64,000 nucleotides of DNA, from positions 68,606 to 132,605 of the forward strand of contig CAKZKT010000127.1 of NCBI GenBank assembly GCA_937124585.1, given 5' to 3'. Shown one piece after another: positions 475-61,755 of the stretch. Source of the DNA: an uncultured Anaerolineae bacterium. GTDB lineage: Bacteria; Chloroflexota; Anaerolineae; CG2-30-64-16. Every line of letters begins with the position of its first letter. Positions within the stretch are counted from its first letter, which is position 1. The notes under the pieces are model-generated. The model saw only the letters and a program-made list of their open reading frames with translations. It had not been told where the DNA came from and made no database searches. The position numbers and the translations under genes were made by a program.

Positions 475-993
475 CTATGCCTCGGCACTCGAAAAAACAT
501 ATTTGCCCCAGGCATGGCGATCTTTCGCTTCGCTCAGGAGCAAGAAGGCCAGGTAATGCGGCCGGCCAGGCTTGCGGCGCAACACCATGCCGGCCTCCTC
601 GGGCGTGCGGTCGCCCTTACGCATGTTGCAGGCCCGACACGCGGTGACGACATTCTCCCAGGTCGTCTCGCCGCCCCGGCTACGCGGCAACAGATGATCG
701 AGCGTGAGGGCCGCGTGCGGGCCAGAGGCGCCGCAGTACTGGCAGGTGTGATTGTCGCGCAGAAGCACCGAGCGCCGGGTCGGCGCCATGGTGACCTGCC
801 GCGGAATGCGCACATAGTAGACCAGGCGGATCACCAGGGGCACGGGCAACGATGTGCGCGCGGCATGAAGCCGCTCCTCGGCGCATTCGATCAGCTCGGC
901 CTTCTCTTTGAGCAGAAGCACCAGCGCCCGCCTGACCGAGACGATGCTGAGCGGCTCATACGTGGCGTTTAGGACCAGGACACGCTGCACCAT
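475..993 (-). CDS. HNH endonuclease family protein
   Basis: Translation contains CQYCG...LTLDHLLPRSRGG...ACRACNMRKGD, an HNH nuclease motif with two Cys pairs. Start is either the ATG at 993 or the GTG at 1002. Confidence 0.8.
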   Translation of the reverse strand: MVQRVLVLNATYEPLSIVSVRRALVLLLKEKAELIECAEERLHAARTSLPVPLVIRLVYYVRIPRQVTMAPTRRSVLLRDNHTCQYCGASGPHAALTLDHLLPRSRGGETTWENVVTACRACNMRKGDRTPEEAGMVLRRKPGRPHYLAFLLLSEAKDRHAWGKYVFSSAEA

Positions 994-1072
994 CACCGAC
1001 ACTCAAAAAGACGTTAAAAAACAACGCCCGGCCTCAGACCGAACGGAAGCCGGGCACGCACAGTTGAAAAGG

Positions 1073-1146
1073 GGTGGCCAGTGGGGCTTGAACCCGCAAC
1101 CTTCTGGGCCACAACCAGATGCTCTGCCGATTGAGCTATGGCCACC
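1073..1146 (-). tRNA. tRNA-His (anticodon GTG), with the 5' G-1 typical of tRNA-His
   Basis: Reverse complement folds into a cloverleaf: acceptor GTGGCCA/TGGCCAC, anticodon loop TTGTGGC, T-loop TTCAAGC. No 3' A is encoded after the CC. Confidence 0.85.
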
Positions 1147-1214
1147 ATATTGATAGATGCGTTTAGGATGTCGCCCAAACAAATGACGTTCGGTCATCTG
1201 CGGCCCCGCATTCA

Positions 1215-1285
1215 CTCGGGGGCAGGGATTCGAACCCCGATAAGGAGCTCCAAAGGCTCCGGTCCTGCCGTTGAACGACCCCCGA
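1215..1285 (-). tRNA. tRNA-Gln (anticodon TTG)
   Basis: RC is TCGGGGG-TC-GTTC..GGAC-C-GGAGC-CTTTGGA-GCTCC-...-CGGGGTTCGAATCCCTG-CCCCCGA-G. Anticodon loop is CTTTGGA; T-loop is TTCGAAT. Confidence 0.75.
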
Positions 1286-1303
1286 ACGCCTCGCCAACAG
1301 GAG

Positions 1304-1376
1304 TGCCGAGGCCCAGACTTGAACTGGGGACACCGCAATTTTCAGTCGCGTGCTCTACCAACTGAGCTACCTCGGC
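1304..1376 (-). tRNA. tRNA-Phe (anticodon GAA)
   Basis: RC is GCCGAGGTAGCTCAGTTGGTAGAGCACGCGACTGAAAATTGCGGTGTCCCCAGTTCAAGTCTGGGCCTCGGCA. The 7-bp acceptor stem is perfect and the anticodon loop is CTGAAAA. Confidence 0.9.
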
Positions 1377-1441
1377 GCATAAACCAAAGCTGGAAGCCAT
1401 CAGCCAGCGCGACGCAGCCTCGGCTTCCAGCCCGGAGTCAG

Positions 1442-1513
<72 letters not shown>

Positions 1514-1596
1514 ACGGTCTATATTTGTCAAAGACGCTTTGCATTATACTCATTTTGCCGCGGCTGTCAAAAACCAGCCGCGGCGCTCAAAACAGG

Positions 1597-1669
1597 TGGA
1601 CCCGACCGGATTCGAACCGGTGATCTCCTCCGTGCAAGGGAGGCGCCTTCCCGCTCGGCTACGGGCCCG
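1597..1669 (-). tRNA. tRNA-Cys (anticodon GCA)
   Basis: RC is GGGCCCGTAGCCGAGCGGGAAGGCGCCTCCCTTGCACGGAGGAGATCACCGGTTCGAATCCGGTCGGGTCCA. Anticodon loop is CTTGCAC. Confidence 0.85.
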
Positions 1670-1707
1670 AACTAGAAGCCGGAAGCCAGGGACCGGCCTG
1701 TCTTCGA

Positions 1708-1788
1708 TGCCGACGGGGGGATTTGAACCCCCACGCCTTGCGGCAACAGATCCTAAGTCTGCAGCGTCTGCCATTCCGCCACGTCGGC
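1708..1788 (-). tRNA. tRNA-Leu (anticodon TAG), class II with long variable arm
   Basis: RC is GCCGACGTGGCGGAATGGCAGACGCTGCAGACTTAGGATCTGTTGCCGCAAGGCGTGGGGGTTCAAATCCCCCCGTCGGCA. Anticodon loop is CTTAGGA, with a 12-13 nt variable arm. Confidence 0.85.
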
Positions 1789-2533: not shown

Positions 2534-3682
2534 ATGAAACGAACTCCTTTTTACCACCAATTCCTCGCTGCGGGTGCTACCATGCGCCCGGTCCAGGGCT
2601 GGGAAATGCCAGACGAGGTGGTCGGCGAGCAAGCCGAGCACCTGGCTGTGCGCCGTGCGGCCGGCTTGTTCGATTGGTCTTCCACCGGTGAGATCGAGAT
2701 CGCCGGCCCCGATGCGCTGGCGCTCGTGCAGAGAGTCATCGTGAACGATGCCGCAGCATTGCCGGTGGGCCGGGTGCTCTATTCCACGATGTGTCGGCCC
2801 GATGGCGCGATCTTCTCCGACATCACCGTCTATCGGCTGAGCGAACGGCGTTTCTGGATTATGACAGCGTGGGCCAGCAATGCCGCCGATGAGCGACCTG
2901 AATTCGACTGGCTGGTCCATCATGCCGAGGGGATGCAGGTCTGCGTCACCGATGTCTCGCCGGGCGTGGCGCTGCTGGCGGTGCAAGGACCTGCGGCGCG
3001 CGCCATCCTCGCAGCGCTGACCCCGACCGACCTGGGATTGCTGCGCCCCATGGACTTCGTCGAGAGCCGGCTGGCCGGCGCGCCGCGGGCCATCATCTCG
3101 CGCACGGGCTACACCGGCGAGTCGGGCTATGAGCTCTGCGTCTCGCCGGAGTATGCGGCAGATGTCTGGGATGCCCTGATGACCGCGGGCCAGCCGCATG
3201 GCTTGCAACCGGCCGGTCTGAAGGCGGCCTTCAGCCTGCGCATCGAGAAGGGCTATATCATGCGGTTCGACTTCATGGACAATGTCACCCCTTTCGAGGC
3301 CGGCCTGGGCTGGACGGTAAAACTCGCAAAAGGCGATTTCATCGGCCGGGATGCATTGGCCAGGCAAAAAGCCGAGGGCGTGCGGCGCAAGCTGGTCTGC
3401 CTGGCGCTGGCCGACGAAACGCTGCCGCCTCCCGGCAGCCCGGTCTGGCGCGGGGACAGCGTGATCGGCAAAGTGACCAGCAGCGCCGTCGGCCACACTG
3501 TGGGCGCTCCGCTGGCGCTGGCGCTCCTGGACGTGGCCCACACGCAGCCGGATGTCGTCGTGATGGTCGAAGTCGGTGCCGCGCACCATCCTGCCACAGT
3601 CGTGCCCCGGCCATATTACGACCCCACAGGGAGTCAGCTGAAACTCTCTCTGGCTGGCGCGGCCAGCCTTCCTACCGGATGA
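2534..3682 (+). CDS. gcvT: Glycine cleavage system T protein (aminomethyltransferase)
   Basis: The 382-aa translation (MKRTPFYHQF...GLFDWSS.GEIEIAGPDA...) has the GcvT-family layout and is immediately followed by gcvH. Confidence 0.85.
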   Translation: MKRTPFYHQFLAAGATMRPVQGWEMPDEVVGEQAEHLAVRRAAGLFDWSSTGEIEIAGPDALALVQRVIVNDAAALPVGRVLYSTMCRPDGAIFSDITVYRLSERRFWIMTAWASNAADERPEFDWLVHHAEGMQVCVTDVSPGVALLAVQGPAARAILAALTPTDLGLLRPMDFVESRLAGAPRAIISRTGYTGESGYELCVSPEYAADVWDALMTAGQPHGLQPAGLKAAFSLRIEKGYIMRFDFMDNVTPFEAGLGWTVKLAKGDFIGRDALARQKAEGVRRKLVCLALADETLPPPGSPVWRGDSVIGKVTSSAVGHTVGAPLALALLDVAHTQPDVVVMVEVGAAHHPATVVPRPYYDPTGSQLKLSLAGAASLPTG

Positions 3683-3724
3683 ACGCGCAAGGCGCACGTT
3701 CTTAGCAAGCTGCGTGAAACCGAG

Positions 3725-4159
3725 GTGAATCCAGTGCTCCATATCGGCGGTTACGACTTCGAGGAAGGGCTGTACTACGACGATCATCACCAGTATGCCC
3801 GCGTGGACGGCGATGTCGTCACGATCGGCCTGAGCCATTTCGCCCAGGCCATCGCCAAAGAGATCAATTATGTCGGCCTGCCGAGGCCGGGCCGCAAGGT
3901 GGAACAGGGCAAGCCGATCGGTTCCGTCGAATCGGGCAAGTGGGTCGGCCGGCTCTACGCGCCGGTCAGCGGCGAGGTGATCGCCGTGAATCAGGCCCTG
4001 GAGGCCGATCCCACCCTCATCAACCAGGATCCGTACGGCGAGGGTTGGATCGTACAACTGCGTGCGGCCGACCTGGGCCAGCTCGCCGCACTGCGCCGGT
4101 GCACCGATCCCGGCTTCGAGACGTGGTTCCTGGCCGAGGTCGCCAGGTACCCGCGATAG
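3725..4159 (+). CDS. gcvH: Glycine cleavage system H protein (lipoyl carrier)
   Basis: The 144-aa translation has a lipoyl-lysine context (VESGKWVG) and the ...SGEV...DPYGEGW GcvH hallmarks. Confidence 0.85.
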   Translation: MNPVLHIGGYDFEEGLYYDDHHQYARVDGDVVTIGLSHFAQAIAKEINYVGLPRPGRKVEQGKPIGSVESGKWVGRLYAPVSGEVIAVNQALEADPTLINQDPYGEGWIVQLRAADLGQLAALRRCTDPGFETWFLAEVARYPR

Positions 4160-4173
4160 CTCAGGCCGCTCCT

Positions 4174-5628
4174 ATGGCCAATCCTCTCTGCCATCCGCCG
4201 CTGGCCGAACTTCTCGGTGATCGCTACACGGAAAGCCCCTTCGAGCGTTCGTTCTACCAACGTGATCTGGCCGTCGTGCCGCATAGCCTGGCCAGACTGA
4301 TCGGCCAGACCCTGCCCGATGCCGTGGCGCGGCCGCGCACAGCCGAGGAGGTCGCGGCGATCATGCGCTATGCCGGCGAACGCAAGCTGGCCGTGACGCC
4401 GCGCGCGGCCGGCAGCACGACCTTTTGGAACGCCGTCCCCCTGCACGGCGGCCTGCTGCTCGACCTGAACGGCTTGGCCGGGCTGGCCGCGCTGGACACC
4501 GACCACCTGACGGCTGACGTATGGGCCGGCACGCGTTGGGCCGACCTCGAGCGGGCGCTGCGCCGCCGCGGCTTCGCCGTGCTCGCCTATCCGACCAGCG
4601 CGCCAGCGGCGACGGTGGCCGGTTGGTTCTGCATGGAGGGGCACGGAATCGGCAGCCTGAAGTATGGCGGGATGGCCGGCCACGTGGCTGGCCTGGAGGC
4701 CGTCCTGGCCGATGGCCACATCGCACAGATCGCGGCGGCGACACCGGACGCGCCGACGGTGGCCGAGCTCGCCGGCTCCGAAGGCACACTGGCCGTCATC
4801 ACGCGCATCCGGCTGCGGCTCCGGCCGGCGCCGGCAGCCGTGGGCCACCATCTCCTGCGCTTTCGCGACATGGCAACGCTCCAGGCGGCTGCGCTCGATC
4901 TGAGCACGGCGCGGCCCACCCCATACTACCTCCATTTCGCCGATGACGCCTGTGGCCGCCTGCTGACGCAGGCCGGATTCCCGCCGCCTGCCGACGGCGC
5001 CCTGCTGGCCATCACGTACGACGGTGCGGCGGCCGAAGTTGCAGCCGGCGCGGCGACCGTCGAACGGGCCGCCGCACAGACTGCCGGCGAGGAGTTGCCG
5101 GCCGCAGCCGCCGCGCGCGCGTGGGATGAGCGGTTTTTGGCCCTGCATCTGAAGCGCGCCGGGCCGAGCGTGTTGGGCACCGAGGCGTGGCTGTCGGTGT
5201 CGCAGCTGGCCGCCTATACGGCAAACGTGGCCAGGCTCGCCAGGCGGCAAAACCTGCCGATCGCCACCTACGGCATGGTCGTCGCACCGGGGATGGCGAC
5301 CGTCATGTCGCTTTTCGGCTGCGATGACGCGCGGCCTCTGGCGTATCTGTTGGCGCTCAGCCTGACCGGCCGGCTGTATGAGATCGCCTTCCGTCACGGT
5401 GGCCGGCCCTATGGCATCGGCGTCTGGAACACGCCATATCTGGGCCGCGCGTTTGCAGCAGAAGAACTGACGGCGCAACGGCGCCGCAAACAGGCGTTCG
5501 ACCCGGCCAATCTCCTCAATCCCGGCAAGCGCTATGCTCCGCCTGCGCTCCTCTGGCCACCGACGTTCAGGCTGGGGATGGCGGCGCTGGCCGGCATACG
5601 CCGGATCGGAAGGCGGTGGCTACGATGA
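4174..5628 (+). CDS. FAD-linked oxidase (FAD-binding PCMH type; GlcD/D-lactate dehydrogenase-like)
   Basis: Start is the internal ATG at 4174 (MANPLCHPP...), just after the gcvH stop. The upstream 78 codons of the 3940 ORF are Arg-rich and overlap gcvH in another frame. The FAD-binding domain motif pattern is present (...RAAGSTTFWNAVPLHGGLLLDLNGL...). Confidence 0.7.
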   Translation: MANPLCHPPLAELLGDRYTESPFERSFYQRDLAVVPHSLARLIGQTLPDAVARPRTAEEVAAIMRYAGERKLAVTPRAAGSTTFWNAVPLHGGLLLDLNGLAGLAALDTDHLTADVWAGTRWADLERALRRRGFAVLAYPTSAPAATVAGWFCMEGHGIGSLKYGGMAGHVAGLEAVLADGHIAQIAAATPDAPTVAELAGSEGTLAVITRIRLRLRPAPAAVGHHLLRFRDMATLQAAALDLSTARPTPYYLHFADDACGRLLTQAGFPPPADGALLAITYDGAAAEVAAGAATVERAAAQTAGEELPAAAAARAWDERFLALHLKRAGPSVLGTEAWLSVSQLAAYTANVARLARRQNLPIATYGMVVAPGMATVMSLFGCDDARPLAYLLALSLTGRLYEIAFRHGGRPYGIGVWNTPYLGRAFAAEELTAQRRRKQAFDPANLLNPGKRYAPPALLWPPTFRLGMAALAGIRRIGRRWLR

Positions 5629-6785
5629 CGACCCCGGCGCCCTTTGGCGGTCTCGCCCAGGAGACGCGCATCTGTGCGCACTGCGGCTATTGTCTGGCCG
5701 GTTGTCCCATCTACCAGGCCGTGGGCTGGGAATCGGCGAGCCCGCGCGGGCGGATGGCGATTGCCGCTGCGCTGGTGCACGGCAACGCGCTGTCCGCTGA
5801 AGCCGCGCAGCGCCTCTATGAGTGCACCCTCTGCGGCCATTGCCGGACAGTATGCCCGACGCGCATTGACACGCTGGCCACCTGGCTGGAAGCGCGGCAG
5901 CGGCTGGCCGATCAGTCGGCGTTGGATCGGCTGCCGCTCGGCCGGCTGCGCGACAATCTGTGCGCAGCCCACAACATCACCGGCGAGCCGGCGGAAAACC
6001 GCTTGCTCTGGCAGGAAGAGCTGAGCCTGGCCCCGGCACTCTTGAATGCCCGGCCCGGCGCGCAGGTCGTGTATTTCGTCGGCTGCGTCGCGGCGCTGTA
6101 CGGCCAGGGTCACGCCATCGCCCGGGCTGCTGTCGAGATCTTCCACCGCGCCGATCTGGACTTCACCACCCTCGGCAGCGCGGAGTGGTGCTGCGGCTTT
6201 CCGCTCCTCGGCCTGGGCCTGCCCGAAGAGGCTGCAGCGGTCGCCCGGCACAACCTGGCTGCCGTGCGAGCGCTCGCCGGCCAGGCGGTGGTGACGACCT
6301 GTCCCTCGTGTTTCCACATGTGGCGCGATGTTTATCCGGCTCTGCTGGGCGGCCCGATCGGCGTCGAGGTAATGCACGCCGGCGAGCTGCTGGCTCGACT
6401 GATCGCCGAGGGCCGCATCGCGTTCAGGCCGCTGCCGGGTCGCGTGACCTATCACGATCCATGCGATCTGGGCCGTAACAGCGGCGTCTACGATGCCCCG
6501 CGAGCGGTATTGCAGGCCATTCCGGGCCTGGAGCTGGTCGAGATGGCCGACCACCGCAAGCACGCGCGCTGTTGCGGCGGAGGCGGCAACCTGGAGGCGA
6601 TCAATCCGGATCTGGCCGGCGAGCTCGCTCGACAGCGCCTCGTGCAGGCCGTCGAGACCGGCGCGACGCTGCTGGTGACGCCGTGTCAGCAATGCAAACG
6701 CACGCTGGCGACAGCCGCCCGCCGGGAACGCGTCCGGCTGCGCGTGCTCGACCTGACCGAGACCGTCGTGCAGGCTTTGGCCTGA
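5616..6785 (+). CDS. (Fe-S)-binding oxidoreductase subunit (GlcF-like: 2x4Fe-4S ferredoxin motifs + CCG domains)
   Basis: CxxCxxCxxxCP motifs appear twice (CAHCGYCLAGCP, CTLCGHCRTVCP). The C-terminal half is Cys-rich with CCG-like motifs (CCGFPLL, CPSCF, CCGGGG). It overlaps the oxidase gene by 13 nt, suggesting a two-subunit enzyme. Confidence 0.75.
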   Translation: MATMTTPAPFGGLAQETRICAHCGYCLAGCPIYQAVGWESASPRGRMAIAAALVHGNALSAEAAQRLYECTLCGHCRTVCPTRIDTLATWLEARQRLADQSALDRLPLGRLRDNLCAAHNITGEPAENRLLWQEELSLAPALLNARPGAQVVYFVGCVAALYGQGHAIARAAVEIFHRADLDFTTLGSAEWCCGFPLLGLGLPEEAAAVARHNLAAVRALAGQAVVTTCPSCFHMWRDVYPALLGGPIGVEVMHAGELLARLIAEGRIAFRPLPGRVTYHDPCDLGRNSGVYDAPRAVLQAIPGLELVEMADHRKHARCCGGGGNLEAINPDLAGELARQRLVQAVETGATLLVTPCQQCKRTLATAARRERVRLRVLDLTETVVQALA

Positions 6786-25157: not shown

Positions 25158-25267
25158 CTGGCCCCCTCGTATGGTTTCGCCTGCATTGTAGCAAGAAGAC
25201 CGCGGCAGGGCAATTGCATGCAAACGGCGTCGGTGCTATAATCGGCTACCGTTTCGAGGTAGAAGGC

Positions 25268-26281
25268 ATGACAGACACCCCATCTCTGCGACACGAAGCA
25301 TACATCGCAGCGCGCGCTGCGGCTGCCTGGGCCGACCTGAGCGATCACGGCTGGCTGCGCGTGACCGGCCGCGATCGGCTCGCCTTTTTGCAGCGGCTGA
25401 CGACCAATGACCTGCGCGGGCTGACGCCGGGCGCCGGCCTGCCTACCGTCCTCTGCTCGGCGACCGGCCGGGTCATCGCGCCGCTCCTGGTCAGCGCCGG
25501 GCCAGACGTGCTCTGGCTGCGCACACCGCTCGGCCGTGCCGACTTCCTGGCCGCGCATTTCAATCGCCTGATCTTCTGGAACGACGAAGTCGAGGTGACG
25601 GATGCGAGCGCGACGACTGCCCAATTCGGCCTCTTCGGCCCGGCTGCCGCGCGCCTGCTCGCCGGGCTGACCGACGCTGCGCTCGACGATCTGCCCGCCT
25701 GTGGCTGGCGCAGCGGCCATCTGGACGAGACGTCGGTCATGATCCTGCGCGGCGGCGCGCTGGAGCCGGCCGACTGGACGATCATCGTGGAAGCCGATCG
25801 GGCCGTCGCGGTGTCCGCGCGGCTGGCCGCGGTCGCGCCGCAACTAACGGCCGCTCAGGTAACGACCCTGCGCGTCGAAAAGGGCCTGCCGGCCTGGCCC
25901 AACGAGCTGAACGACCAGGTCACGCCGCTGGAGGTCGGCCTGCGCGGTGCGATCAGCGATAACAAAGGCTGCTACACCGGCCAGGAGGTCATCGCGCGGC
26001 AGCTCAACTACGACAAGGTGACGCGCCAGCTGGTCGGCCTGTGTCTGCCGGCCGACGCAGCCTGGGCCGATCTGACCGCGGCGGCAATTCGGACGGGCAG
26101 CGGCCGCAGCGGCTTCGTGGGCACGGTCGTCTGGTCGCCCGCGCTGGGCCGGCCCATCGCCCTGGCCATCGTCCCGCGTGATGTCGCCGCGACCGGCCAA
26201 ACCGTCATGATCGCCGGACCCGGGCAGCCGGTGACGGCTACCGTTGTCACGCTGCCGTTCACGGAAGGATGCCTGCCATGA
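25268..26281 (+). CDS. Folate-binding YgfZ/CAF17-type protein (GcvT-like aminomethyltransferase fold)
   Basis: GcvT_N-like domain with a C-terminal KGCYTGQE motif characteristic of YgfZ. Start is the ATG at 25268 with a GAGGTAGAAGG RBS. Confidence 0.7.
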   Translation: MTDTPSLRHEAYIAARAAAAWADLSDHGWLRVTGRDRLAFLQRLTTNDLRGLTPGAGLPTVLCSATGRVIAPLLVSAGPDVLWLRTPLGRADFLAAHFNRLIFWNDEVEVTDASATTAQFGLFGPAAARLLAGLTDAALDDLPACGWRSGHLDETSVMILRGGALEPADWTIIVEADRAVAVSARLAAVAPQLTAAQVTTLRVEKGLPAWPNELNDQVTPLEVGLRGAISDNKGCYTGQEVIARQLNYDKVTRQLVGLCLPADAAWADLTAAAIRTGSGRSGFVGTVVWSPALGRPIALAIVPRDVAATGQTVMIAGPGQPVTATVVTLPFTEGCLP

Positions 26282-58610: not shown

Positions 58611-58934
58611 TCAGGCTTCGTCTTTCGACAGCTTGATCGTCACATCGGCGGGCAAGGCCAGCCCGGCCTCGATCTCGATCGCCTTGATCACACCTGACGG
58701 CACGGGGCAGGCCGGATGGGTCAGGCATTGCGGCGCCACCTGCAGCGTGATGGGGCCGCCGCGGCGCCAGGTGAACTCGCGCAGGGGGTCCACCTCTTTG
58801 AGCTGCTCGGCAAACTTCATCACGCCTTTGCATTCGCTTTGGATGTCCAGGTGAACGGTGCCGTCTTCGTTTTTGCGCGCAATGACCGTCGTCGTGAAAC
58901 CGCAAATGCCTGCGTGGATTTCAGCTTTGGCCAT
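58611..58934 (-). CDS. Hypothetical small protein (107 aa, four Cys)
   Basis: GAGGGAC RBS 6 nt upstream of the ATG. Immediately upstream of rluA. No recognisable family. Confidence 0.45.
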   Translation of the reverse strand: MAKAEIHAGICGFTTTVIARKNEDGTVHLDIQSECKGVMKFAEQLKEVDPLREFTWRRGGPITLQVAPQCLTHPACPVPSGVIKAIEIEAGLALPADVTIKLSKDEA

Positions 58935-59081: not shown

Positions 59082-59157
<76 letters not shown>

Positions 59158-59376
59158 TAGCGATTATTTATTATAGTGTAATCTCTGCGAAACGCAAAAT
59201 CCAAGGCATACGATCGTCATCCGTCGTTCGTTGCTGTCTGCATCCTGGCCGATAAGTTGTTTGCGGCGCCAGAGCAGCCCGTCGGACGCCGGGATGTGAT
59301 CGCACCAAAAAAACAGGCACCGATGTCGCCGTTGACATCGGCGCCCGCCGCAAAAGTCGGCCGCCGTCCGACTCGT

Positions 59377-59973
59377 TTAGGGCTTCCAGACTTCCCAGAC
59401 CCGACCGACCAGCGCCGGGCCGGGCTTGAGGGTCACCTGTCCTGGCTCCCAACCCGAAGGCGTCACCTCACCCGTCGCGCGCACGTGCTGGAATGCCTTG
59501 ATCTGGCGCACCAGCTCAGCGGGGTTCCGCCCAACCTCCGGGGTCAGAACCTCCATGGCGCGAATCACGAAATCGGGGTCAATGATGAAGCGACCGCGGA
59601 TGTCCACGCCCGCCGCGTCATCATATACGCCGTAGATCGTCCCCACCTTGCCCCCGGCATCGGACAGCATCGGGAAGGGCACCCCGCCCTCTACCATCTT
59701 GGAGAGTTCCTGTTCCTGCCAGATCTTGTGTACGAAACGGCTGTCGGTGCTCATGGCCAGCACAACAACGTCCATGGCCTTCAGCTCGTCGTAGATGGCG
59801 GCGACCGCCGCCAGCTCGGTGGGTCAAACAAAGGTGAAGTCACCGGGGTAGAAGCAGAGGACGATCCACTTGCCCTTATAGTCCGAGAGCTTGACGGGCT
59901 GGAAGCCCACGCCCTCGATGAACGCCGTAGCCTCGAAATCAATAGCCTCCTTGCCGACCTTCGCAAGCATCAT
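59377..59973 (-). CDS. Peroxiredoxin (AhpC/TSA, 1-Cys type) with in-frame TGA at the peroxidatic-Cys codon: candidate selenocysteine-containing peroxiredoxin
   Basis: The ORFs 59824-60078 and 59377-59775 are in one frame (597 nt). The TGA at 59824-59826 replaces the Cys of the FYPGDFTFV[C]PTE motif. AGGAGGTG RBS sits 4 nt before the ATGATG. A SECIS-like hairpin lies just downstream (see next feature). Confidence 0.6.
59796..59813 (-). promoter_or_regulatory. Putative bacterial SECIS element (hairpin UGGCGGC-GGUC-GCCGCCA) 10 nt 3' of the in-frame UGA
   Basis: A 7-bp GC stem with a GGUC apical loop. The G/U loop context resembles the E. coli fdhF SECIS apical loop. Confidence 0.5.
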
Positions 59974-60179
59974 TGGCACCTCCTGTGATGATGGGATTGC
60001 CCCTGAAACCGGGGGCGGCGGCGCGGGCAGGATCGGCCCGCGGGCGGGTTTGACGCAACCCTCTTTTAGCTCTGGCATGTTTGCCTCCTCTGTGAAAACG
60101 TTCCTGTGCGACGGACGGCGGCCGTTTGCACGAACATTATATCACAATTCTGCGGGTGCAATACCGGCCGAATTGACTC

Positions 60180-61590
60180 ACGCTAAATCTTACTTTGGGG
60201 AAGTCGTTGCCTCATGGGATAATCTTACCCAGCGCTTGCCGCTTGGCAGGTGCTGGGAGAGAGTGAGGCATGATGAGTCAGACCAGCAAACGTGAACTAC
60301 TGGCTGCGGTGCGGCCCCGCTACACGCTGGGCAATCGCACCGCCAAGCAGCGGGTATTGGATGAACTGGTCGCCACCACCGGTTATCACCGCAAGTATGC
60401 GATTCAGTTGCTGAATCACCCGCCAAAGCAACGGCCCCCCAAACGCCGGAACCGATCCCCCAAGTATACGGGGCCGGTGATCGCCGCCCTGGTCAAGGTG
60501 TGGCAGGCGGCCAACTGTATCTGTAGCAAGCGGCTGGTGCCCGCCCTGCCGATGTTTGTAGACGCCTTGGAGCGGCACGGCGAGCTGAAACTGGACCCCC
60601 AGACCCGTGGGTTGCTCCTGGCGCTCAGTCCGGCCACGGCGGATCGGCTGCTCAAGCGGGCCCCGGGGGGGGGACCAAGCCGCACGGCCTCACGACCACC
60701 AAGCCCGGCACGCTGCTAAAACGCGCCATCCCGGTGCGCACGTTTGCGCAGTGGGATGACGCCCAGCCAGGCTTTATGGAGGTGGACCTGGTGGCCCACT
60801 GTGGTGACTCGACGCGCGGGGAGTACCTGAACAGCCTGGACATGGTGGACGTCAAGACGCGCTGGGTGGAGCTAGCCGGGCTGCGCAACCGCAGCCAGGC
60901 GACGGTCAGTGCGGCCATTGCCGAGTGTCGCAGCCGGTTACCTTACCCCCTGCTGGGGTTGGACTCGGACAACGGCAGCGAGTTCATCAACGACAATTTG
61001 AAGCGCTACTGCGAGAAAGCGGGCATCACCTTTACCCGTTGCCGACCCTACAAGAAAAACGATCCGGCCTACGTCGAGCAGAAAAACTGGACGGCCGTGC
61101 GCCAAAACGTCGGCTATGACCGGTATGAGGGCCAGGCAGCTTATGAGGCCCTGAATGCCCTCTATGTGTCGTTGCGGCTGTATATCAACTTCTTCCAGCC
61201 CGTCATGGTGTTGGTCGAAAAGACCCGCGACGGCACCAAAGTCAAAAAGCGCTACGACAAGGCCCAGACGCCGTATCAACGCATCCTGGACTCACCCGAC
61301 ATGGCCGAAGACGTCAAGACCCAATTGCGTCAGCAATACGCGACGCTCAATCCGCTGGTCTTATTGCGCCAGATTCATGCCCGCCAGGAGGCGCTCTGGA
61401 AACTTGCCATCCCACCCGCCGGTGAGTTATCATGAGCCGGCGCGTATGAACCGCCAGCGGCGGGGAACCCAGGTTCCCCGCATCCTTCCTGTTGGTTGCC
61501 GGGGAACCTTAACGACTTGACGCGATGCAGCAGGCGTCAAGTAATATCCGCCTGTGAGGCAACGATACCTCTATGGTAAGATTTTTACGT
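60180..61590 (+). mobile_element. IS element (about 1.4 kb) encoding an rve/DDE-type transposase, imperfect ~40-bp terminal inverted repeats
   Basis: Left end (ACGCTAAATCTTAC...TCGTTGCCTCATGGG) and right end (CCTGTGAGGCAACGA...GTAAGATTTTTACGT) share the AAATCTTAC and TCGTTGCCTCA blocks in inverted orientation. AT-rich ends sit in GC-rich surroundings. Confidence 0.6.
60270..61435 (+). pseudogene. DDE transposase (N-terminal HTH + rve integrase core) split by a -1 frameshift at a G9 homopolymer (60666-60674)
   Basis: ORFs 60270-60719 and 60734-61435 are contiguous in frames 0/-1, and the second frame is open back through the G-run. The D,D,E triad is present (MEVDLVAHCGDS ... LDSDNGSEF ... 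VEQKNW). Confidence 0.6.
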
Positions 61591-61755
61591 GAGGCAATAC
61601 GCATTACGATTTTCGACGGCGGCCACGAGATCATCTACGAGGCCGCACTGAACTGGATGGCAAAACACGCGCAACGCGATGCATGACGCGTCAGGCGTCG
61701 GATTCTCACGTTTGACGCCTGACATTCTACGTTCTACCCAACCCCGGAGGATACG

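Follow-up and report, generated by a model that had tools for sequence, protein, structure and literature searches.

Is a peroxiredoxin gene with a TGA at its catalytic cysteine codon a decayed gene, or is the codon read as selenocysteine (Sec) and the gene translated in full? This question is raised by a locus in a 64,000-nucleotide (nt) stretch of DNA from an uncultured Anaerolineae bacterium (GenBank assembly GCA_937124585.1, contig CAKZKT010000127.1, positions 68,606 to 132,605 of the forward strand), which was analyzed as a whole and is termed the window here. On the minus strand of the window, positions 59973 to 59377 encode a 198-residue AhpC/TSA peroxiredoxin, running from MMLAKVGKE to VWKP and a terminal stop codon, with one internal stop. 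A preliminary description, made from the sequence letters, had proposed that this was a probable unannotated selenoprotein gene with a Sec insertion sequence (SECIS) just downstream of the TGA. The analyses described here indicate that the gene is very probably prxU, encoding an AhpC/Prx1-class thioredoxin-dependent peroxiredoxin with Sec as the peroxidatic residue, and that the protein would be decoded and would act by the mechanism proposed below.

Identification of the gene

Both translation and Pfam agreed with the earlier statement that a peroxiredoxin of ~198 amino acids (aa) is interrupted only by a TGA at 59826 to 59824. When a Cys was put at the stop, Pfam detected AhpC-TSA (2.6e-35) together with 1-cysPrx_C. 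Solved 2-Cys peroxiredoxins (4fh8, 1we0 and human Prx2, 1qmv) aligned at ~1e-43, and the peroxidatic Cys of their DFTFVCPTE motif fell exactly on the TGA, as had been claimed. The active-site motif of the peroxiredoxin superfamily, PxxxTxx(C/U) as defined in PMC13188914, is present as P78-G-D-F-T82-F-V-U85, so that the TGA (59824 to 59826, minus strand) corresponds to Sec85, the peroxidatic residue of PxxxTxxU. The conserved catalytic Arg is also present, as the RGRFIID sequence of the prxU product aligns with RGLFIID of 4fh8.

The downstream end of the gene was as first described, but the upstream end was not. The reading frame extends in frame to an ATG at 60078, which adds 35 codons to the 59377 to 59973 interval; the full coding sequence therefore occupies 59377 to 60078 (minus strand) and comprises 233 codons, with Sec at codon 85, plus a TAA stop at 59379 to 59377. 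This extension, which encodes an N-terminal arm, is kept in 78 of the 80 related loci introduced in the next section. The 233-residue product scored 367.1 bits against the NCBIfam equivalog NF040737 (peroxi_PrxU, thioredoxin-dependent peroxiredoxin), for which the cutoff is 270, and residues 5 to 232 of 233 matched model positions 1 to 230 of 233. The next-best model, AhpC TIGR03137, reached 177 bits and was under its cutoff of 272, and all other peroxiredoxin models were also below cutoff. One database relative bears the name "Selenocysteine-containing peroxiredoxin PrxU."

Conservation of the TGA codon

The comparison set consisted of 80 loci recovered by a scan of one genome per species, with proteins 82 to 97% identical; the window's own genome was absent from the matches, the best of which was 97% identical. 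These loci came from metagenome-assembled genomes (MAGs) labeled Anaerolineae, Dehalococcoidia, Deltaproteobacteria, Nitrospirae, Planctomycetia, Acidobacteriota, Gemmatimonadota and others. A TGA was present at the same codon in 79 of the 80 loci, and in the remaining locus the motif pattern failed to locate the site. Four Cys-type relatives (L081, L089, L090 and L091) carry TGT or TGC at this codon, and the Aggregatilinea lenta protein is an example of a natural Cys form.

Past the TGA, the frame was open for 148 codons in 74 of 80 sequences (the 79 loci plus the window) and for 149 to 158 codons in the rest. Ratios of nonsynonymous to synonymous substitution rates (dN/dS) between the window gene and seven relatives were 0.03 to 0.06 over the 148 codons after the TGA and 0 to 0.06 over the 47 codons before it, with dS values of 0.4 to >1. 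The open frame and the matching low ratios indicated that the part of the gene after the TGA is translated and that purifying selection acts on it just as on the preceding part. As 30 of the 45 other confidently identified genes in the window end in TGA, the genetic code has not been reassigned.

Sequencing error was considered as a source of the TGA and rejected. Copies of prxU that were identical or differed at no more than 4 of 702 nt were found in at least four public contigs of independent origin, which derive from several samples and two MAGs, and an error would not account for identical or near-identical genes in independent contigs. The genome to which the window belongs matches NCBI MAGs GCA_034432295.1 and GCA_036742915.1 and JGI samples 3300025104 and 3300010288.

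The preliminary description had named, as the sign of a decayed pseudogene, relatives that kept the TGA without a conserved hairpin and with divergent downstream codons. The relatives instead retained the TGA, the open frame (dN/dS of ~0.05 after the TGA) and a hairpin with compensated changes. The selenoprotein reading thus stands on 79 of 80 loci with the TGA, on purifying selection and on constraint at the RNA level, to which we now turn.

RNA hairpin downstream of the TGA

A 7-bp hairpin with a GGUC loop had been described 10 nt downstream of the TGA. It was located at 59796 to 59813 on the minus strand (UGGCGGC-GGUC-GCCGCCA, with the apical loop at 59806 to 59803) and is assigned here as a bacterial SECIS from its fold, covariation and synonymous constraint. 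The hairpin alone folded at −13.3 kcal/mol (z score, −3.6; 0 of 200 shuffled sequences were as stable), and the 40 nt from the UGA folded at −17.2 kcal/mol (z score, −2.4; 7 of 200 shuffles). A 61-nt segment around the site was no more stable than its shuffles in this 66% G+C sequence (z score, 0.17), and the fold of the single sequence is therefore unconvincing alone; the comparative data were decisive.

RNAalifold analysis of 80 sequences yielded a 6-bp stem (alignment columns 27 to 32 with 37 to 42) closed by a tetraloop, in which three pairs were invariant and three had compensatory changes. Pair 30-39 joins the third bases of two Ala codons; here, 57 distinct sequences had G-C, 18 had A-U and 1 had G-U, while one was unpaired. 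Double changes numbered 24, against 5.1 expected, and 0 of 500 shuffles reached the observed covariation. When the partner strand was slid by 3 nt, pairing persisted, since the sequence is a GCN repeat, but the covariation was gone. Two loci preserved a pair by coupled amino acid changes, an Ala-to-Thr change with an Ala-to-Val change. Synonymous codon entropy at codons +5 to +9 was 0.29 to 0.88 bits, whereas these amino acids had values of 1.4 to 1.9 bits in the rest of the gene.

Bacterial SECIS (bSECIS) elements have been defined by a loop of 3 to 9 nt on a stem of 4 to 16 bp, G at the first two loop positions, a distance of 16 to 37 nt from the UGA to the loop and a minimum free energy of −7.5 kcal/mol or lower (PMC13188914, Fig. 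2). The prxU hairpin agrees on all four counts, with a GGUC loop of 4 nt, a stem of 6 to 7 bp, a spacing of 17 nt and a free energy of −13.3 kcal/mol. The loop was GGUC in 72 of the 79 TGA loci, and the median stability of the hairpin in TGA forms was −12.5 kcal/mol, compared with −8.3 to −10.0 kcal/mol in three Cys-type relatives encoding the same peptide. Among the four Cys-type genes, three retain the hairpin with loops of UGUC, AGUG or UGUG, and the fourth has the letters GGUC but has lost the stem.

The three Cys-type genes with a retained hairpin (L081, 10001 to 10687, protein P0004; L089; and L090) combine the Ala-Ala-Val-Ala-Ala (AAVAA) peptide with a weakened hairpin whose first loop base is no longer G, and the hairpin of L090 holds compensatory changes (GGCCGC/GCGGCU). 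It is possible that these hairpins are relics of Sec-to-Cys conversion.

Evidence against Sec decoding and alternative explanations

Several observations weigh against the assignment of prxU as a functional selenoprotein gene. The peptide AAVAA (GCN GCN GUN GCN GCN) dictates four of the six conserved stem pairs through first and second codon positions, and the three Cys-type relatives that encode it still have a hairpin, albeit a weaker one. The stem alone is therefore no proof of a SECIS, and, as its existence is mostly driven by the peptide, it is the loop, the two free pairs and the low synonymous variation that carry the case for the SECIS. Hence, while the criteria for a bSECIS, the covariation and the loop upheld the proposal that the hairpin is a SECIS, the stem provided weaker evidence than the preliminary description had assumed. 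No Rfam SECIS family was detected in 59740 to 59860 even at E values of up to 10, and only two chance matches to microRNAs were obtained; as no library family reached threshold, this result says little on function. As to the roles proposed below for Cys8 and Cys75, an AlphaFold monomer model of the Cys orthologue P0004, built with a 29-sequence alignment, was confident in the core (mean predicted local distance difference test [pLDDT] score, 77.8) but gave a pLDDT of only ~60 for the N-terminal motif and <50 for the linker that follows it, and it speaks neither for nor against docking of the N-terminal arm.

The genes for Sec insertion were also missing from the DNA examined. Neither a tRNA-Sec (ARAGORN and Rfam) nor selA, selB or selD (Pfam survey of 50 open reading frames [ORFs]) was detected in the 64-kb window, and none of these genes was present in ~17 kb of extra flanking sequence obtained from public contig copies (~81 kb in total). 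Similarly, no tRNA-Sec or sel genes were found in the 60 of the 80 related loci that were searched. Sec machinery genes are usually unlinked to selenoprotein genes, so that their absence from ~81 kb carries little weight.

Of the other explanations, the one that retains most support, unlikely as it is, is that a gene of a Sec family resides in an organism that has lost its Sec machinery, as a recently acquired and currently nonfunctional passenger. The closest homologues match only as far as the gene borders, beyond which the flanks are unrelated, an insertion sequence (IS) bounded by 23-nt inverted repeats is found 129 nt before the prxU start, and identities of >82% across many phyla without conserved neighbors fit horizontal transfer; the failure to find the machinery in the ~81 kb examined points the same way. 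Against this, the gene, the TGA, the SECIS, the Shine-Dalgarno (SD) sequences and the terminator are all intact in the window, and the recovered copies, from several independent samples and two MAGs, are identical or no more than 4 of 702 nt apart. General knowledge of how sel genes are normally arranged, as noted above, robs the missing machinery of most of its force.

Less probable still is a pseudogene, in which the catalytic codon suffered an inactivating nonsense mutation and the hairpin arises incidentally from G+C-rich Ala codons. This would be in keeping with the 61-nt fold being no stabler than shuffled sequence, with the four of six stem pairs given by the AAVAA codons alone and with the lack of Sec machinery in the window. 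It does not account for the same TGA in 79 of 80 species-level genomes, a dN/dS of ~0.05 after the TGA, the absence of further stops or frameshifts, a stem that covaries, synonymous variation that is suppressed exactly in the hairpin or the intact Shine-Dalgarno sequence and terminator, and it is effectively refuted at the family level.

Read-through of the UGA without Sec, by a near-cognate Cys or Trp tRNA and with the hairpin merely slowing the ribosome or blocking release factor 2, is scarcely credible. UGA followed by C is a leaky context in Escherichia coli, and hairpins 3′ of stop codons can promote read-through, but the GGUC loop present in 72 of 79 loci is that of the E. coli fdhF SECIS, with a spacing only one nucleotide different, the Cys-type relatives simply use TGT or TGC, and there is experimental proof of a peroxiredoxin that contains Sec (Sohling 2001, as cited in PMC13188914). 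A genome-wide sense meaning for TGA (code 4 or 25, Trp or Gly), to which 42 of the 120 best database matches might seem to testify in being stored with Trp at the site, can be dismissed, as TGA stops 30 of the 45 confidently identified window genes, the Trp forms come overwhelmingly from metagenome contigs of ~1 kb in which the code choice is a gene-caller artifact, and a peroxiredoxin with Trp in place of its peroxidatic residue would be catalytically dead.

Proposed mechanism

For decoding of prxU as a selenoprotein gene, we infer from the known bacterial pathway that the UGA at codon 85 does not end translation and that the hairpin 10 nt downstream acts as a bacterial SECIS. The GGUC hairpin would recruit SelB-GTP carrying Sec-tRNA(Sec), Sec would be inserted and the remaining 148 codons would then be translated. 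In the protein, the selenolate of Sec85, aided by the conserved Arg, would attack the peroxide and be converted to a selenenic acid. Since the C-terminal resolving Cys is replaced by Thr, the oxidized Sec is probably resolved by another invariant Cys; Cys8 on the flexible arm (more likely) or Cys75 would form a selenenylsulfide with the oxidized Sec, and a thioredoxin-type reductant would then reduce the enzyme. A short form without the arm may also be made from an internal SD sequence and start.

N-terminal arm, conserved cysteines and internal start

The residues invoked in this mechanism were examined across the family. The N-terminal motif (60028 to 60078, minus strand), with the codon for Cys8 at 60057 to 60055, is present in 78 of the 80 loci and has the consensus M-x-E-L-K-(D/E)-G-C-V-x-P-A-R-G-P-(I/L). 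Cys8, Val9 and Gly14 were invariant in 78 of 78 loci, and the free synonymous variation of their codons indicated that the arm is translated and selected as protein. The motif with its Cys is also found in the Cys-type relatives. It is followed by a variable linker rich in Pro, Ala and Ser (59974 to 60027, minus strand; residues 18 to 35), which differs in both length and sequence between loci. Across the family this hypervariable linker spans ~20 to 25 residues, and the distance from Cys to Sec was 73 to 79 codons in 73 of 80 sequences.

The second candidate, Cys75, lies in VLCFYPGDF (codon at 59854 to 59856, minus strand), 10 residues before Sec; this position is Cys in 80 of 80 loci and Phe in solved 2-Cys peroxiredoxins. 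At the canonical position of the resolving Cys, alignment to 4fh8 and 1we0 placed Thr206 (codon at 59461 to 59463, minus strand), with GEVTPSGW in the window protein corresponding to GEVCPAxW. No Cys was detected at this position in any family member with a locatable motif, the residue being mostly Thr, with a few instances of Ala, Met or Leu; members outside the resolving-site pattern read GEMTP, GELMP or GKATP.

An internal AGGAGG was identified at 59979 to 59984 (minus strand), 5 nt before the ATG at 59973 to 59971 (Met36) and 8 nt before the ATG at 59970 to 59968 (Met37). An SD sequence 5 to 8 nt before an in-frame ATG or GTG was present at the internal site in 76 of the 80 loci, and a perfect AGGAGG in 64. 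The internal SD was kept under varied residues (QEV, KEV, QEA, MEE, VEG and PEG and, once, in another frame, SGGV), at two spacings and with the hypervariable linker around it. This site, together with its start codon, is located 48 to 49 codons before the Sec codon. It is present in the cytoplasmic Cys-type genes L081 and L091 and absent from the planctomycete genes L089 and L090, in which a signal peptide precedes the arm. This distribution suggests dual initiation, giving predicted forms of 233 aa and 197 to 198 aa, with no apparent role in Sec decoding.

It is conceivable, if doubtful, that the PrxU clade exchanged the C-terminal resolving Cys for Cys8 on a flexible arm and, in addition, makes two proteins from each mRNA, a long one equipped with a resolving arm and a short one lacking it, the ratio of the two forms tuning recycling of the selenenic acid. 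Neither a tethered N-terminal Cys nor a dual start was found described in the literature searched. The NCBI family model does include the arm; as the match to NF040737 spans residues 5 to 232, the arm is already part of the curated model. The tethered N-terminal Cys, which appears to substitute for the lost resolving Cys, and the conserved second ribosome-binding site within the gene might each merit a small experimental study.

In planctomycetes, Cys-type homologues of PrxU (P0041, P0044 to P0046, P0048 and P0054) have a signal peptide ahead of a CxxPARGP motif, and their genes are followed by a metallo-beta-lactamase/rhodanese gene or, in one case, by a gene for a VKOR/thioredoxin-like protein. 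The presence of the signal peptide suggests that these proteins may be an exported version of the enzyme.

Transcription unit and genomic context

The gene prxU is a single, monocistronic gene. The long form is preceded by an SD sequence, AGGAGG, at 60084 to 60089 (minus strand), 5 nt ahead of the ATG at 60078. Among the related loci, an SD-like motif was found ahead of 55 of 75 locatable upstream starts, with AGGAGG in 44. A strong intrinsic terminator with a 16-bp stem followed by a run of T residues lies at 59303 to 59349 (minus strand), 28 nt past the stop codon, and homology to loci L002 and L004 runs through it, to 59312 to 59316. A possible extended −10 promoter element, TGATATAAT, can be read in the sequence at 60136 to 60144 (minus strand). 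A scan for consensus promoters did not report an element at 60136 to 60144, as only 14 nt separate it from the closest −35-like hexamer. Homology to related loci stopped at the borders of prxU and its terminator, 60131 and 59312, even for the closest relatives (90% nucleotide identity).

Among 80 loci, no conserved gene neighbors pointing to a reductant were detected, and other recurrent ORFs were shadows of prxU itself. A Fur/PerR-like gene was located near prxU in 6 of the 80 loci and in L081. At the protein level, prxU is 82 to 97% identical in MAGs of at least eight phyla with no conserved neighbor, and a near-identical copy (698 of 702 nt) is present in a different context in L085. Frequent horizontal movement of prxU as a single-gene cassette seems to lie behind this pattern, or else, in part, contamination during MAG binning.

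The IS upstream of prxU is ~1.39 kb in length and occupies 60207 to 61597, ending 129 nt from the prxU start; its 23-nt terminal inverted repeats (60207 to 60229 and 61575 to 61597) are 83% complementary. It contains two ORFs on the plus strand, at 60270 to 60719 and 60734 to 61435, the latter of which encodes an rve integrase domain. The public MAG contig DAOUCE010000149.1 terminates precisely at this element. Directly downstream of prxU are a tRNA-Pro(CGG) (59082 to 59157, minus strand) and a gene for a Cys-rich DUF6951 protein of 107 aa (58611 to 58934, minus strand), neither of which accompanies prxU in the 80 related loci.

Elsewhere in the window, same-frame adjacent ORF pairs proved to be separate genes rather than split selenoprotein genes; these were GcvT/GcvH, E1 alpha/E1 beta and an ABC permease followed by an FTCD_C protein. 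The GcvT-GcvH pair opens the region from 2534 to 6785, in which it is followed by an ORF at ~4174 to 5628, called as a 484-aa flavin adenine dinucleotide-linked oxidase in public contig copies, and then by a GlcF/GlpC-like iron-sulfur protein with CCG domains. GlpC-like iron-sulfur oxidoreductases contain Sec in some bacteria; no in-frame TGA was found in the window gene for this protein. A second GcvT-like gene is present at 25214 to 26281. Six tRNA genes (His, Gln, Phe, Gly, Ala and Leu; 1071 to 1788, minus strand) are clustered beside the gene for a free-standing HNH endonuclease at 475 to 1002 (minus strand).

Consequences for annotation

The prediction that gene callers would split prxU was borne out, as public copies of the locus are called as ORFs of 84 (or 49) and 132 aa. 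Among the 120 best database relatives, ~40 are 145-aa fragments that start just past the TGA and 42 are full-length proteins with a spurious Trp. The 145-aa and Trp forms are systematic gene-calling artifacts for PrxU in metagenome catalogues. With the gene split, shortened or given a false Trp in the public contig copies and in dozens of related MAGs, annotation pipelines under-count this antioxidant selenoenzyme in Anaerolineae and other anaerobes, and a missed prxU is also a missed marker of selenium use by the organism.

The term "unannotated selenoprotein" in the preliminary description was apt in that prxU is not called as one gene in public records. As the PrxU family is already known and curated, the result is an annotation correction rather than a discovery.

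Comparison with known systems

The SECIS of E. coli fdhF, the sequence of which was verified in 5,419 genomes, folds with a GGUC loop, which is the loop contacted by SelB. The fdhF and prxU elements are alike in being a hairpin within the coding sequence just after the UGA, in having a GGUC apical loop and in following a UGA that is itself followed by C. With numbering from the U of UGA, the first G of the loop is at nt 21 in prxU and nt 22 in fdhF. Their stems are unrelated, prxU having a short, perfect G-C stem and fdhF a longer, interrupted helix, and the prxU stem is in addition constrained mostly by the AAVAA peptide.

Compared with the typical 2-Cys Prx1/AhpC proteins (4fh8, 1we0 and 1qmv), the window protein has the same fold, the DFTFV(C/U)PTE motif, the conserved Arg and the 1-cysPrx_C C-terminal domain. 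It differs in having Sec for the peroxidatic Cys and Thr for the resolving Cys of GEVCPAxW, and in the addition of an N-terminal arm with an invariant Cys and of Cys75 where the solved proteins have Phe. As judged from these sequence features, the prxU product shares the fold and would work as a peroxiredoxin without belonging to the typical 2-Cys group.

The Prx-like thiol:disulfide oxidoreductase (UxxC) and the thiol peroxidase Prx-SUH are, like the window protein, thioredoxin-fold selenoproteins of one superfamily (PMC13188914, PMC1088965). They carry UxxC or CxxU redox motifs, whereas the window protein has the true peroxiredoxin TxxU motif and passes only the PrxU cutoff.

The PrxU prototype is that of Eubacterium acidaminophilum, a protein reportedly of ~200 aa. 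Peroxiredoxins with TxxU are an established bacterial selenoprotein family (PMC13188914, PMC1794560, PMC1088965, PMC5029168), with 12 genes in a 2006 census in which selenoproteins of Chloroflexi were recorded as well (PMC1794560) and 91 genes in 78 organisms in 2016 (PMC5029168). PMC13188914 counts them among the prokaryotic selenoproteins already known and refers for them to the E. acidaminophilum enzyme (Sohling et al. 2001), a Sec-containing peroxiredoxin having been demonstrated experimentally according to the citation given there. The window protein resembles this family (NF040737) in its whole-length match, in the Sec of PxxxTxxU, in the SECIS directly 3′ of the Sec codon and in the lack of a C-terminal resolving Cys. 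No distinguishing feature was found in the window copy, save that public records do not call it as one gene, and the gene is an ordinary member of the known, curated and widespread PrxU selenoprotein family.

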